Source of the DNA: an uncultured Candidatus Saccharibacteria bacterium
GTDB taxonomy: Bacteria > Patescibacteriota > Minisyncoccia > Phycocordibacterales > PALSA-1337
Assembly: GCA_964542675.1 (NCBI GenBank)
Contig: CAZIUH010000003.1
Coordinates: forward strand, 8,932-64,208
Direction of reading: 5' to 3'
DNA: 55,277 nt
This document shows positions 2,642-50,028 of the stretch, in pieces. A program made the translations under genes and the position numbers. The notes under the pieces were generated by a model, which had not been told where the DNA came from, ran no database searches, and worked only from the letters and a program-made list of their open reading frames with translations. Position 1 is the first letter of the stretch, and every line of letters begins with the position of its first letter.

Positions 2642-3145
2642 ACAGATAAAGTAGCAAATCTTGTCCGTTGGCATATGTTTTTTTCCGATACCGAGTTAAT
2701 TACCCTTTCTGCCGTCCGCCGTATGATAGTAAATGTCGGAAAAGACAGCATTTGGGATCTTATGAACTTACGGTTATGTGACCGAGTTGGAACCGGACGC
2801 CCGAAAGAAAATCCATATCGACTAAGAAAGTACAAAGCAATGATAGAAGAAGCATTGCGAGACCCTATTTCGGTAAAAATGCTGAAGATTGACGGTAATA
2901 TAATAATGGAAATATGTAAGATTCCGGCATGTAATAAAGTCGGATATATTTTGAATGCCCTATTCGATGAAGTCTTGAATGATCCCACACTGAATACAAC
3001 TGGATACCTTGAAAAAAGGGCTATAGATATAGCCAATCTACCAGAAAATGAAATGAAAAGACTAGGTGAAATGGGAAAGGAAAGGAAAATGGAGGAAGAA
3101 GAAAAGAATGTTGAAGAAATACGAAAAAGGTATCATGTTCAATAG
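1658..3145 (+). CDS. cca: CCA tRNA nucleotidyltransferase (class II) with HD domain
   Basis: YLVGGCVRD, DWDITT, RRDFTVNA, DRFNEDALRMIRAIR and AALFHDISKP motifs. Confidence 0.92.
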   Translation: MKTTQNNTIPNEIVNTVETLEKAGYQAYLVGGCVRDIFLGKKPRDWDITTNANPGEIQGLFPKTVYENVYGTVVVINEATEDDTLRNVEVTPYRLESKYTDRRHPDEVKFSEKIEDDLKRRDFTVNAIAVSLSNGAIKDIIDLYEGFQDIKDKVIKAVGNAQDRFNEDALRMIRAIRLAVELGFTIETITYKAICDQNMILKDIAMERIHDEFIKILMSPSPKKGIEILHETGLLFHVTPELEKGIGVSQPQAHAHDVWEHLLRSVQCAADKSFGLELRLAALFHDISKPKTKGISRETQQITFYSHEVIGSRETRKILEKMKFSREITDKVANLVRWHMFFSDTELITLSAVRRMIVNVGKDSIWDLMNLRLCDRVGTGRPKENPYRLRKYKAMIEEALRDPISVKMLKIDGNIIMEICKIPACNKVGYILNALFDEVLNDPTLNTTGYLEKRAIDIANLPENEMKRLGEMGKERKMEEEEKNVEEIRKRYHVQ

Positions 3146-18937: not shown

Positions 18938-19156
18938 TGGAGTCAGTGGCGGGCGGTATATTCATTTTTCACAATCGAGTATTTTTCCTGTGCGACGAAC
19001 GACTAGCATTTTCCAAGATTTTTGTACGTGAATGTCCGAGAGGACAAAAATCATGTAAAAATGCTGGAGTGAGGAGAAGGTAAAGTGAGAATCAACCTAA
19101 TATACACAGGATACGCAGATTGTAAAAAATGAATGTACCGCCTGCCACAGACTCCA
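18938..19156 (+). repeat. ~220-nt palindromic element with long terminal stem and inner hairpin
   Basis: tggagtc.gtggcgggcggtatattcattttt.acaatc pairs with gattgt.aaaaatgaatgtaccgcctgccac.gactcca, including G-U pairs on the plus strand. Confidence 0.8.
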
Positions 19157-26659: not shown

Positions 26660-26732
26660 TGTCATTTTCGCGAAAGCGGGAATTTAGTATAATAATAAAA
26701 GTTATTAGATTCCCGCTTTCGCGAAAATGACA
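26660..26732. repeat. 24-bp perfect inverted repeat, dRS3-like GTCATT..CGCGAAAGCGGGAAT palindrome
   Basis: tgtcattttcgcgaaagcgggaat (26660-26683) / attcccgctttcgcgaaaatgaca (26709-26732). Confidence 0.85.
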
Positions 26733-33432: not shown

Positions 33433-33435
33433 TCT

Positions 33436-33594
33436 CCCGGAATCACAACAAACAAAGCATGTTTTTCAAGACGAGGACTGCGATTGTCTCGCGGTCTTAG
33501 GATGATGTATAAAAAACAACATCTGAATAAATATTGCATCAATAGGAACAGTTCCGCAGTTTTGAAAAACATGCTTTGTTTGTTGTGATTCGGG
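33436..33594 (+). repeat. palindromic element family 1, copy A
   Basis: Arms gaatcacaacaaacaaagcatgtttttcaagac / gttttgaaaaacatgctttgtttgttgtgattc; core 33473-33558 GAGGACTGCGATT...ATAGGAACAGTTCCGCA. Confidence 0.9.
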
Positions 33595-33596
33595 TA

Positions 33597-40842: not shown

Positions 40843-40940
40843 TTTGATTTCATTAAGACTGATAATGAATTGTTTAATTTGTAGCAGATGTTAATTTTTT
40901 TGGCAACAATTAAAACTGTGGATAATTATCGATGTCATTT

Positions 40941-41092
40941 CGCGAACAAGGACACAAATAATTTCCTCGTGGCGAGGACTGCGATTGTCACGCTGTCACA
41001 AGGAGATGTACAACAAATAATCGTTGATTATCGTTTATGGTAATAGAAACAGTTCCGCAGCCACGAGGAAATTATTTGTGTCCTTGTTCGCG
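40941..41092 (+). repeat. palindromic element family 1, copy B
   Basis: Perfect 33-bp arms cgcgaacaaggacacaaataatttcctcgtggc; core 40974-41059 GAGGACTGCGATT...ATAGAAACAGTTCCGCA. Confidence 0.9.
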
Positions 41093-41111
41093 GAGACTTG
41101 ATACCCATTAT

Positions 41112-46596: not shown

Positions 46597-46668
46597 ATTA
46601 GAATTGAGGTAGTGGCCTACCCTTGTGGCTGGCTTGCATGATTCAAAAAAGTGATGTATACTGCTGGC

Positions 46669-47274
46669 ATGAAAAAGAATACACATTTCATGTTGTCAGT
46701 CGCGTTGGCTGTTATATGTTTTATGGGTGTTAGCAATGTGAATGCTCAATATTACGACTATTCCGGCTATTCAGATTATTCCGGCTATTCAAGTTACTAC
46801 GACTATGGATCCTATAGCGGCTATGATTATTATGATTACGGCTCGTACGGAAGCTATGACTACTACGATTCATATAATTATGGCTCGTATGACTATTATG
46901 ATACATATTCTCCGACATATTATTCTTCGTACTCTTCATATTATCCGAGTTATGATTATGTTTCATATTCCTCATACTATCCTTCATATACTTCATACAA
47001 TTATTCCAACTACTTTGTGCCAAATTATAATGTCGGCGGCTACTATGGATATAATTATCGATCATATAGCTCCGCGCCGGCATACGGTATTTACGCCAAA
47101 AATGTAGTACCAGAACGCGCTCCATATAGTTACAATTCATGTAACTCTGGTTGTGGATCATACGGTTATGATGATTATCGTGATGGAAATAATAACCGCG
47201 GATATGATTACGGTGGCGGGAATAATAGAAATAATCAGAATGGTAATTATAATTATGGAGGGGGACACAGATAA
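46669..47274 (+). CDS. secreted Tyr/Ser/Gly/Asn-rich low-complexity protein
   Basis: Signal peptide ending VNA-Q, followed by YSGYSD/YYDYGSY-type repeats. Confidence 0.75.
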   Translation: MKKNTHFMLSVALAVICFMGVSNVNAQYYDYSGYSDYSGYSSYYDYGSYSGYDYYDYGSYGSYDYYDSYNYGSYDYYDTYSPTYYSSYSSYYPSYDYVSYSSYYPSYTSYNYSNYFVPNYNVGGYYGYNYRSYSSAPAYGIYAKNVVPERAPYSYNSCNSGCGSYGYDDYRDGNNNRGYDYGGGNNRNNQNGNYNYGGGHR

Positions 47275-47302
47275 TATTTTTCAATTAGTGTAAAATGTGT
47301 GC

Positions 47303-49852
47303 ATGGCCAAGAACCATACCGGTAAAAAGAAAAGACTAATACTGTTGGACGCGCACGCTATCTTGCATCGCGCATATCATGCTTTGCCGGATTTTTCTAC
47401 AAAAAATGGTGAGCCGACAGGCGCGCTTTATGGTCTTTCGGCTATGCTCATAAAAATCATTGAGGATTTGAAACCCGATTATATTATCGCTTGTTATGAT
47501 GTAAAGGGTCCGACATATCGGCATGAAGCGTACAAAGAATACAAAGCGGGACGTAAAGCCGCCGAAGACGATCTTATCGCGCAGATGAAAAGTTCGCGGA
47601 GGATTTTCGAGGCGCTCAATATTCCAATTTATGATAAACAAGGGTTTGAAGCTGATGATGTTATAGGTACGATTGTAGAAAATCTGAAGGATGATAAATC
47701 CGTGGAAACAATAATAGCTTCAGGCGATATGGACACCATGCAACTCATTCGTGGCGACGATGTGAAAGTCTATACTCTGAAAAAGGGAATAAACGATACG
47801 ATAATGTATAACGAGAAGGCGGTCCGTGATCGTTTCGGTTTCGGGCCGGAACTCATCGCGGATTATAAAGGTTTGCGTGGTGATCCTTCGGATAATATTC
47901 CAGGCATCAAAGGAATCGGCGAGAAGACGGCGACGATTCTGATTTCAAGTTTCGGTACCATAGAAAACGTATACCATGAATTGGAATCCGGTCACGGAAA
48001 GGGTGGAGACGTGAAATTCGAAAAGGCCGGAATAAGCCCGCGTCTCATTCAGGTTCTGAAAGATAATAAAGAAGAAGCGGAATTCAGTAAAACTCTAGCG
48101 ACAATTCGAAAGGATGTGCCGATTGATTTCGTTTTGCCGGAGAAAACATTCAAGGAAAACTTCGATGTGAAGAAGATCGATGAATTGTGGCGTGAATTGG
48201 AGTTCCGGACATTGCCGCAGAGGTTGGAGAAGGTTATCGGAGTTTCGAACAGTTCGGCGAATGGAAGCATCGCGCCTGCAGGTCTTGCAAACACAGTTTC
48301 TGTGGACACGCCGTCGACGTCATTCGCCACAAACGAAACCATGGCAAACGACGTCGCGTCTGGTTCTCGCCTCCGTCCTGGTGGGGAAATGCAAGGGGAT
48401 TTACTCGACGAAGGCTCCGAAGCGTCCACAGAAACCGTGTTTGCAAGACCTGCAGAGCGTGAAGAATTCGAAAAAGTCGCTATTGCGCGTTGGATCATAG
48501 ATTCCAATATTACAAATCCGCAAATGAAGGATATTTTGCGTTTTGCCGATACGAAAGATTTCGAAGTTGCCAAGAAAGCTGTTTTCGAAGAATTGAACAA
48601 GAAAGATTTGCGGAAAGTTTATGAAAAAATAGAACTGCCTCTCATTCCCGTCGTTTATAAGATGGATAAAAAAGGAATCAAAATAGATAGAAATTTTCTG
48701 AAGAAATTATCGAAAGAATATCATTCGGTCATTGAAAGTTTGGAAAAGAAAATATGGAATGAAGCTAGCGGAGAATTCAATATCAATTCGCCGAAACAAT
48801 TGGGCGAATTTCTCTTTGACAAGCTCGGACTCAAGGTGAAGAATCAGAAGAAAACGGCGGGCGGGGCGCGTTCAACGAAAGAATCGGAATTGGAAAAAAT
48901 GCGCGACATGCATCCGGTTATCCCTATGATTTTCGAATACCGCGAATTGGCGAAACTGCTTGGTACCTATATTGACGCGATTCCGCCCTTACTAGATTCA
49001 AACGATCGGCTTCATACGCATTTTCTCCAAGCTGGCACGACGACTGGCAGAATGGCTTCACAGGAACCGAATTTACAGAATATTCCGGTGAAATCAGAAC
49101 TGGGTCGGGCGATTCGAAAAGCGTTTATTGCCGACAAAGGATTCAAGCTTGCCGCTTTGGATTATTCACAAATTGAATTACGCATTGCCGCCTTTTTGTC
49201 CGGTGATGAAAAGATGATAGATATTTTCCGGAAAGGAGAAGATGTGCATACTTCGGTGGCTTCATTCGTCTTCAATGTCTCTTTGAAAGACGTGACTCCG
49301 GAAATGCGCCGTCAGGCAAAAGTGATAAATTTCGGAATAATTTACGGCATGGGTGTTCTGGCTTTGAAACAAAATCTTGGTTCGACCCGCGAAGACGCGC
49401 AGAAATTCTTGAATGATTATTTCAATACTTTTTCAACTCTGGCGCGGTACTTGAATGACGTGAAGGCGGAAACGGCCAAGAAAGGGTATACGGAAACATT
49501 ATTTGGGCGCAGGCGATACTTTGAGGGGATTAATTCCCATATTCCATATATCAAAGCGCAGGCGGAAAGAATGGCGATCAATGCACCTATCCAAGGGACG
49601 GAAGCGGATATTATCAAGCTGGCTATGATCCGTATCGATGAATACTTGAAGAATACCAAGCTCGAAGATATTGCATTTCCTCTATTACAAGTGCATGATG
49701 AATTGGTTCTGGAAATTCAGGAGGACCGGGCTGAGGAAATCGCGCGTGAGATCAAGAAAATTATGGAAAGTGTCGTTGATACAAAAGAGACAAAAGGAAT
49801 TGTTTTGACAGCGCAGATACATATCGGCGATAATTGGGGAGAATTGAAATAA
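47303..49852 (+). CDS. polA: DNA polymerase I
   Basis: 5'-3' exonuclease (HRAYHA, EADD, GDPSDNIPG), polymerase motifs DYSQIELR, KVINFGIIYG, QVHDEL; 3'-5' exonuclease region short and degenerate. Confidence 0.96.
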   Translation: MAKNHTGKKKRLILLDAHAILHRAYHALPDFSTKNGEPTGALYGLSAMLIKIIEDLKPDYIIACYDVKGPTYRHEAYKEYKAGRKAAEDDLIAQMKSSRRIFEALNIPIYDKQGFEADDVIGTIVENLKDDKSVETIIASGDMDTMQLIRGDDVKVYTLKKGINDTIMYNEKAVRDRFGFGPELIADYKGLRGDPSDNIPGIKGIGEKTATILISSFGTIENVYHELESGHGKGGDVKFEKAGISPRLIQVLKDNKEEAEFSKTLATIRKDVPIDFVLPEKTFKENFDVKKIDELWRELEFRTLPQRLEKVIGVSNSSANGSIAPAGLANTVSVDTPSTSFATNETMANDVASGSRLRPGGEMQGDLLDEGSEASTETVFARPAEREEFEKVAIARWIIDSNITNPQMKDILRFADTKDFEVAKKAVFEELNKKDLRKVYEKIELPLIPVVYKMDKKGIKIDRNFLKKLSKEYHSVIESLEKKIWNEASGEFNINSPKQLGEFLFDKLGLKVKNQKKTAGGARSTKESELEKMRDMHPVIPMIFEYRELAKLLGTYIDAIPPLLDSNDRLHTHFLQAGTTTGRMASQEPNLQNIPVKSELGRAIRKAFIADKGFKLAALDYSQIELRIAAFLSGDEKMIDIFRKGEDVHTSVASFVFNVSLKDVTPEMRRQAKVINFGIIYGMGVLALKQNLGSTREDAQKFLNDYFNTFSTLARYLNDVKAETAKKGYTETLFGRRRYFEGINSHIPYIKAQAERMAINAPIQGTEADIIKLAMIRIDEYLKNTKLEDIAFPLLQVHDELVLEIQEDRAEEIAREIKKIMESVVDTKETKGIVLTAQIHIGDNWGELK
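48276..48455 (-). mobile_element. 180-bp in-frame palindromic insertion within polA
   Basis: 32-bp arms ctgcaggtcttgcaaacac(a/g)gtttctgtggac at 48276-48307 and 48424-48455; inner hairpin cgacgtc..gcca/tggc..gacgtcg. Confidence 0.75.
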
Positions 49853-49866
49853 TTCTCGAACGCAGT

Positions 49867-50028
49867 TCGCCCGCAAACAAAGACAATATTATTTTTTGGA
49901 AGACTACGGAACTGTTCCTATAGTTTATTATGAAAGTTTGGTTAGATTGTTATACAGAATCCTGAGACAGAGTGATGAATCGCAGTCCTCGTCTTCCAAA
50001 AAATAATATTGTCTTTGTTTGCGGGCGA
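49867..50028 (-). repeat. palindromic element family 1, copy C
   Basis: Perfect 38-bp arms tcgcccgcaaacaaagacaatattattttttggaagac; core 49905-49990 reads GAGGACTGCGATT...ATAGGAACAGTTCCGTA on the minus strand. Confidence 0.9.

Follow-up and report, generated by a model that had tools for sequence, protein, structure and literature searches.

How does a long palindrome come to sit, in frame, inside the gene for DNA polymerase I, and is it better understood as a piece of protein or as a piece of selfish DNA? The question is raised by a stretch of 55,277 nucleotides (nt), called the window here, from an uncultured Candidatus Saccharibacteria bacterium whose genome (G000 in what follows) totals 628,756 bases, divided among 25 contigs, with a completeness of 95.7%. 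The polA gene of the window (47297..49852, + strand, assigned from its open reading frame (ORF) and Pfam) encodes a DNA polymerase I of 851 amino acids (aa), and residues 327-387 of this protein correspond to a palindromic three-way-junction element (48276..48455, +), assigned to a subfamily named E1 on the basis of its inverted repeat, its fold and a covariance model, R1, described below. The element is probably a non-autonomous, hairpin-forming repeat of about 184 nt which has moved between genes, is tolerated in frame and is constrained as nucleic acid.

What does the polA element look like? The original prediction, made from the letters of the DNA alone, described 32-nt arms with one mismatch, 180 nt without a stop in the polA frame and a GC content higher than that of the flanks, and these descriptions hold. 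The arms (48276-48307 and 48424-48455) are 97% complementary and lie 116 nt apart, the frame is open throughout, with the element one base off the codon boundaries (codon 327 starts at 48275), and the GC fraction is 0.56-0.57 across the element versus 0.31-0.47 in the flanks. An inner hairpin is formed by 48315-48329 and 48342-48356. An arm search allowing up to three mismatches returned two places only in the window, with none expected (100 shuffles). The predicted fold of the element reaches -90.8 kcal/mol on the + strand (z -8.9) and -110.1 kcal/mol on the - strand (z -12.2), values that none of 200 shuffles equalled on either strand. Model R1 scores the element at 192.4 bits, from 57205 to 57388 of contig C3, which is 48274-48457 of the window. 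As to its place in the protein, the element had been located between the 5'-3' exonuclease and a degenerate 3'-5' exonuclease region. The first half of this stands: Pfam recognises 5_3_exonuc_N at residues 13-181, 5_3_exonuc at 184-285 and DNA_pol_A at 466-849 (E 9.7e-139), and the element lies in the linker between the last two. The second half finds no support, as Pfam reports no such domain, and no family of any kind in residues 286-465. Serine, glycine, alanine, proline, aspartate and threonine make up 64.6% of the residues of the E1 peptide, and from this composition and the position in a linker the PolA insert may be pictured as a disordered surface loop.

The polA element has relatives in other genes. 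Five E1 copies were found, spanning four different genes and three organisms: polA and secA in G000, parB and argS in a second genome of the genus (G099), and polA on a metagenome contig (L073). All five are in frame, have the same orientation to their host gene and keep exactly 116 nt between the arms. The secA copy of G000 is 73% identical to the polA copy and lies in frame near the start of SecA, so that 110 residues of the protein align to 46 positions of the SecA_DEAD profile. When all 93 genus genomes were searched at the DNA level, G099 was the one further carrier to emerge. A scan for both invariant junction strings (see below) found the metagenome contig, which comes from a closer relative and includes a polA ortholog whose linker holds the element in the corresponding place. 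The arms measure 32-38 nt in four of the copies, and in L073 a 21-nt perfect arm is accompanied by an outer arm of 15 nt. The secA and argS copies have outer-arm sequence in common, which argues that the arms are part of the element and not of the target. The terminal inverted repeats that define a miniature inverted-repeat transposable element (MITE) are thus present in E1, with the difference that the sequence of the arms covaries between copies instead of being conserved.

Do the orthologs of the host genes carry it as well? Most do not. In PolA, none of 29 other members of the genus has the peptide, and the linker is non-alignable and of very variable length; the original prediction expected such a gap in relatives. 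The sole ortholog with an alignable peptide, that of L073, also has the palindrome in its DNA. None of the alignable relatives carries the element at the SecA site (29 loci were fetched, of which L060 did not align). G099 has a SecA without the element, and the ParB of G000 has an unrelated linker in its place; no polA was found in G099, which is uninformative as this genome is 85% complete. Different genes are therefore occupied in different species, a signature of movement after the species diverged, and the element would then be, or have been, mobile. In the secA of G099 (locus L108), the linker that E1 fills in the SecA of G000 contains an unrelated palindrome, about 100 nt long, whose ends are GTCCCGCGCGCC...GGCGCGCGGGAC.

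What is conserved among the five copies, the peptide or the nucleic acid? The copies align without internal gaps and fold as a three-way junction with an outer stem P1 of 34 pairs (5' arm 48276..48307, 3' arm 48424..48455) and two hairpins, P2 (48315..48356, 16 pairs and a 10-nt loop, columns 42-57 with 68-83 of the five-copy alignment A5) and P3 (48369..48415, 9 pairs and a 29-nt loop, columns 96-104 with 134-142), all given on the + strand. Pairs have changed on both sides in all three helices (18 of 34 in P1, 7 of 16 in P2 and 3 of 9 in P3), so that 28 of the 59 pairs show both-sided changes, a number that none of 500 shuffles reached and that falls to 2-9 when the register is slid; likewise, 88.8% of the cells are paired, versus 33-41% in slid registers. 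The strands that join the helices behave in the opposite way. Two 14-nt junction strings, GTCTGGTTCTCGCC (48358..48371, +) and GGCTCCGAAGCGTC (48413..48426, +), do not vary among the five copies, even at third codon positions. Counted by codon position, the invariant sites are 32, 23 and 28 of 60, with third positions not relaxed, and this even spread places the constraint on the nucleic acid and not on the peptide. The motifs common to the peptides, SGSR and GSEAS, are the translated junction strands. Neither the host frame nor its mirror frame on the opposite strand has a stop in any of the five copies, and the remaining four frames are open in zero to two of them; this pattern fits read-through translation. 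The suggestion that such palindromes are a route to new protein sequence is borne out in part: it is possible, but selection on the peptide is not visible in the pattern of conservation.

The two orthologous polA copies allow the stems to be followed at one site. The G000 and L073 elements are identical at 116 of 180 positions (64%), with flanks at 73-80%, and the differences fall on 49 of 118 paired columns and 16 of 66 unpaired columns. Nineteen pairs have changed on both sides where random placement would give 10.1 (P < 1e-4), and 15 of these 19 are Watson-Crick pairs in both copies. E1 stems change fast but in step. How can two arms diverge so quickly and remain partners? The stems may be under compensatory selection, one arm may serve as template for the other, or another copy may replace the whole element; the second of these possible causes is suggested by the template-switch correction known for quasi-palindromes.

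E1 is one branch of a larger superfamily. The covariance model R1, built from the five E1 copies and applied with strict filters, finds 65 distinct places in 29 of the 93 genus genomes (69 rows, of which 4 are reverse-strand repeats of the training copies); in 150 genomes from other genera of the order it has no match. In G000 it reports the two training copies and none of the other 18 large hairpins of that genome, which means that the model does not simply respond to any long stem. The 18 matches that were inspected keep the layout and the junction cores; over 23 elements, by our own count, ACG is present in 22, TTCTCG, the core of GTCTGGTTCTCGCC, in 18 and TCCGAA, the core of GGCTCCGAAGCGTC, in 18. 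At least three subfamilies can be told apart among them, and there are short forms of 127-130 nt. Open frames of at least 200 aa enclose 12 of the 18, seven in the orientation of the model and five opposite to it, and the other six have no spanning open frame of that length. Pfam names 11 of the 12 hosts (PolA, RecG, DnaE, TsaD, UvrD, UvrA, RecO, two phosphoribosyltransferases and two TrwB-like ATPases) and gives no match for the remaining one.

The same linkers recur among these hosts. The polA linker that holds E1 in G000 and L073 holds a different subfamily in another ortholog (L093, residue 336), and a further R1 match (G003:C8:2683-2813) lies, by coordinates alone, in the linker of that genome's polA (C8:1248-3779). 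At the argS site, E1 is found in G099 and another subfamily in G000 (C7:22329-22487). A RecG-type helicase of G000 also has an in-frame member (C25:1618-1794), assigned by eye from the common motifs; like the ArgS member of that genome it belongs to another subfamily and is missed by R1 under the strict filters. In a scan for inverted repeats, 5 of 28 polA ORFs, that of the window included, have a linker inverted repeat of at least 16 bp, and at least three unrelated types are represented. The same permissive sites are reused by different subfamilies. In the nearest sampled PolA ortholog (L010, from G029), a palindrome of about 173 nt with 37-nt arms and a 99-nt loop (2902-3074) occupies the linker at residue 329. 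The polA linkers of three further loci (L018, L019 and L025, from G010, G011 and G036) have a short GC-rich palindrome of the type GTCATTCCCGCGAAGGCGGGAATCC, translated as IPAKAGIQ or DSRLRGND; a similar 30-nt inverted repeat is seen in the window at 26660-26732.

How would such an element enter so many coding sequences and remain there? We propose that it enters genes that differ from species to species within one Patescibacteria genus and that copies would persist only where they are harmless, that is, in hypervariable surface linkers of large housekeeping proteins. The persisting copies would use one of the two stop-free mirror frames of the element, and the ribosome would read it through as about 60 aa rich in serine, glycine, alanine and proline. 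The arms drift fast and yet stay complementary, perhaps through compensatory selection or because replication or repair rewrites one arm on the template of the other. Our best guess for the mover is a trans-acting enzyme that would recognise the conserved junction of the element in its folded, single-stranded form. The Y1 transposase family (Y1_Tnp, PF01797) has matches in 49 of the 93 genus genomes, full-length and longer forms among them. As for the autonomous relative or transposase that a MITE should have, none was found in a search limited to PF01797. A bolder idea is that a mobile nucleic acid of an undescribed, structure-guided kind has the invariant junction (ACG / TTCTCG / TCCGAA) as its active core, be it a small catalytic RNA or DNA or a single-strand site that an unknown recombinase would recognise in folded form, and that it may prefer to land in hairpin-forming DNA. 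This would explain why the arms differ between copies yet stay paired, and the landing preference would explain why the same polA, argS and secA linkers are filled by different subfamilies and by unrelated palindromes; we regard it as speculative and rather unlikely.

Several observations weigh against a repeat that moves between genes and is translated in place. No empty site is near enough to show the exact ends of the element or a target-site duplication. E1 is rare: exact junction-pattern scans of genome and metagenome collections returned the G099 pair and one contig, and a peptide profile run against 1.84 billion representative proteins gave one marginal match. A genome-wide check for further copies, proposed with the original prediction, was fruitful for intragenic copies (the one in secA) and fruitless for intergenic ones, as all five E1 copies are genic, unlike the repeats of Rickettsia discussed below. 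Translation would follow from the open frames in essential genes, which are what speaks for it. Since the mirror frame is open as well, the shared orientation of the four independent insertions is weak evidence (about p = 0.125). The polA copy of L073 is closer to the G099 copies (75%) than to that of G000 (65%), which makes replacement by another copy a live option and bears on the idea that the polA element evolved in place. Regarding the mover, the sole Y1_Tnp match of G000 is a 78-aa remnant of the IS200/IS605 type at the start of a contig (C7:18-254, - strand), and the presence of the family does not track that of the element (14 of 29 versus 35 of 64 genomes, Fisher p = 0.66, the genomes being related and many of them incomplete).

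The searches themselves differed in reach. nhmmer --max with a two-copy alignment found no third copy in the whole of G000, where the diverged ArgS and RecG members were recognised later by eye and motif. A DNA search of 60 relatives gave no real match, only stretches of 19-23 nt, and a 20-mer scan of genome contigs gave none. A search for longer protein homologs found only the PolA of the window; as it also missed the SecA copy of the same genome, it is a weak test.

Would the host itself have a reason to keep the element? It had been noted that mismatches in the stems become G-T pairs on the minus strand and that the element therefore folds antisense to polA. The pairs are as described, the three mismatches of the polA copy being A.C on the + strand and G.U on the - strand, and the asymmetry extends to E1 as a subfamily, with 14 antisense-wobble versus 3 sense-wobble helix positions (p = 0.013) and a consensus fold of -118.1 kcal/mol antisense versus -100.2 kcal/mol sense. 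A structured antisense RNA selected by the host, or a cis-regulatory structure inside essential genes, would be consistent with this preference. But the asymmetry is gone in the 18 other superfamily members (22 versus 18, p = 0.64), and elements that lie opposite to their host gene give counts of 8 versus 7. There is also no promoter-like or terminator-like signal at the polA element (a terminator had been considered as a candidate and was dropped), and most orthologs lack the element, which is unexpected for a regulatory part of polA or secA. A host-selected role of this kind is in our judgement distinctly unlikely, and the wobble asymmetry of E1 stands as unexplained and not as evidence of antisense function. 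Might the element be removed before PolA is mature? An excised intervening sequence, be it a self-splicing or self-cleaving RNA or an intein-like peptide, would leave a mature PolA without the insert, and the conserved junction, invariant strands and covarying helices do resemble a functional RNA core. However, cmscan of 48150-48580 places no Rfam 15 family on either strand of the element at E values up to 10, the only match being a sub-threshold snoRNA outside the element, and the whole window yields four tRNAs only at the gathering score. The host frame is stop-free in all copies and the four other frames are mostly closed, a pattern that an excised sequence would not need, and the maximal stem spans 180, 184, 188 and 192 nt in four copies, which are not all multiples of three. 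As for an intein, about 60 aa without a Pfam match in residues 286-465 are too small, the lower size limit of inteins lying above that. Excision thus appears very unlikely. Among other structured candidates, a hammerhead-type core was dropped, since hammerhead junctions follow a 7/3/1 pattern and the strands here measure 7, 12 and 8 nt; an integron attC-like site and a retron were considered and dropped too.

Selection could also act on the peptide, as an adaptive module in PolA, SecA, ParB and ArgRS. That the peptides have the motifs SGSR and GSEAS in common and that the polA insertion was kept in two species would agree with such a module, which is nonetheless highly improbable: the motifs are the translated invariant junction, identical at third positions (the codon-position counts given above), the peptide is of low complexity and the four host proteins are functionally unrelated. 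Is the palindrome, finally, real? The polA linker is hypervariable, so that a chance palindrome could arise in it, and fold-back chimeras, which occur in amplified metagenome DNA, could produce one as an assembly or amplification artefact. We give such an origin practically no credence. Five related copies are present in three organisms, none of 100 shuffles contains the arm pair, and independent assemblies carry the element. In the DNA sequencing runs X1 and X2, both possibly source samples, one Logan contig piece per run (depths 31.8 and 12) includes the segment without a single difference, and so does a Logan contig of a third run not flagged as a source (X5, piece 48197-48900); no joint skipping the segment occurs in the DNA contigs of these three runs, and an identical PolA protein is encoded on 4 contigs. 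Lack of support in the reads, which the original prediction had named as a reason to abandon it, is therefore not what these data show.

With a mobile, tolerated repeat as the probable explanation, which known system is it closest to? The original prediction likened it to the Rickettsia palindromic elements (RPEs), selfish palindromes that insert in frame into conserved genes, and this comparison gains from the copies in secA, parB, argS and the polA of L073, from the orthologs without the peptide and from the presence of the superfamily in housekeeping genes. RPEs, in the available portions of the articles cited here and below, are palindromes with lengths of 105-146 bp (about 150 bp according to PMC10969869) that form ten families and are found in frame in many conserved Rickettsia genes (PMC2229807, PMC10969869); that in gmk is translated, with enzyme activity kept (PMC2229807). 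E1 and its relatives resemble them in being hairpin-forming repeats of 100-200 nt, in several families and without a known transposase, which lie in frame in conserved housekeeping genes of a bacterium with a reduced genome, where the added peptide is tolerated. The likeness claimed here is one of behaviour; the host of E1 belongs to another phylum, the Patescibacteria, so that by lineage E1 is not a member of the Rickettsia-specific families. E1 is also longer (180-184 nt versus 105-146 bp), folds as a three-way junction with invariant strands where RPEs form a long simple stem-loop, and has none of its five copies between genes, whereas RPE families also occur there and in RNA genes. Moreover, translation has been demonstrated for the RPE of gmk (PMC2229807) and is read from open frames for E1.

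Other small repeats share part of this profile. MITEs with open frames (the 107-bp form of Correia/NEMIS, ERIC and YPAL) are, like E1, small and non-autonomous, with terminal inverted repeats, stable RNA folds and sometimes in-frame fusions, but their terminal repeats are conserved, they often show TA target duplications and they are mostly intergenic (PMC2229807). In E1, unlike these MITEs, the arm sequence covaries, no target duplication is readable and no parent insertion sequence was found. The repetitive extragenic palindromic (REP) sequences and REPINs moved by RAYT transposases of the Y1 HUH type are thought to act as folded single strands (PMC3733652), which recalls E1, and the Y1 family is present in about half of the genus genomes, as given above. 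REPs, however, measure 20-40 bp and are extragenic, whereas the superfamily elements measure 127-184 nt, lie inside genes and show no association with Y1_Tnp. PARCELs likewise consist of coding DNA that has dyad symmetry and spreads among genes and genomes. They differ from E1 in being selected as protein and in their form, tandem amphipathic repeats of 25 residues within membrane-targeted ORFs whose function is unknown; E1 is present as single copies in housekeeping enzymes, and its peptide shows no sign of selection.

In-frame selfish palindromes have so far been treated as a peculiarity of Rickettsia. Among the titles and abstracts listed by a limited literature search, none reports such repeats in Patescibacteria, Parcubacteria or the candidate phyla radiation; in the available text of a 2024 review of MITEs the word 'Patescibacteria' is absent, and a similar process in other prokaryotes is called only "conceivable" (PMC10969869). 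Here a structurally distinct family appears to do likewise in Patescibacteria, a very large uncultivated lineage, in genes of replication, repair, secretion and translation. This may help to explain the odd extra segments and hypervariable linkers of Patescibacteria proteins, and it calls for caution from annotators and structure predictors, as such inserts would derive from repeat DNA and not from acquired domains. The conserved junction and covarying helices should also make E1 a tractable case in which to study the movement of hairpin repeats and the continued pairing of their arms.

A few further observations were made alongside. G000 has 20 large hairpins in 629 kb (29-46 nt matched per arm, loops of 62-142 nt), and those of the window, beside the polA element, lie at 296-461, 18938-19156, 33435-33596, 40939-41094 and 49867-50028. 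Beyond the polA and secA pair they belong to other families, each with a conserved core and with arms that are specific to the copy yet complementary within it. One family has eight intergenic copies whose core has the ends GAGGACTGCGATTGT...TAGGAACAGTTCCGCAG, and one of these copies lies 15 nt past the stop codon of polA. Another (core ATTGCCAGAGGCATAA...) is found in frame at two places in G000 (C5:18802-18943 and C6:19046-19203), within open frames of 361 and 1050 aa, the former of which resembles RsmH in its flanking motifs. Just upstream of polA, a 207-aa ORF (46651-47274, +) is of low complexity and extremely rich in tyrosine, serine, glycine and aspartate, with an N-terminal hydrophobic stretch. 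Finally, the protein matches of several relatives break near query residue 131 of PolA and query residue 250 of SecA, with 80-190 nt between the parts, as if these genes had additional in-frame insertions elsewhere; one R1 match (G010:C4:73086-73209) overlaps such a gap in SecA.

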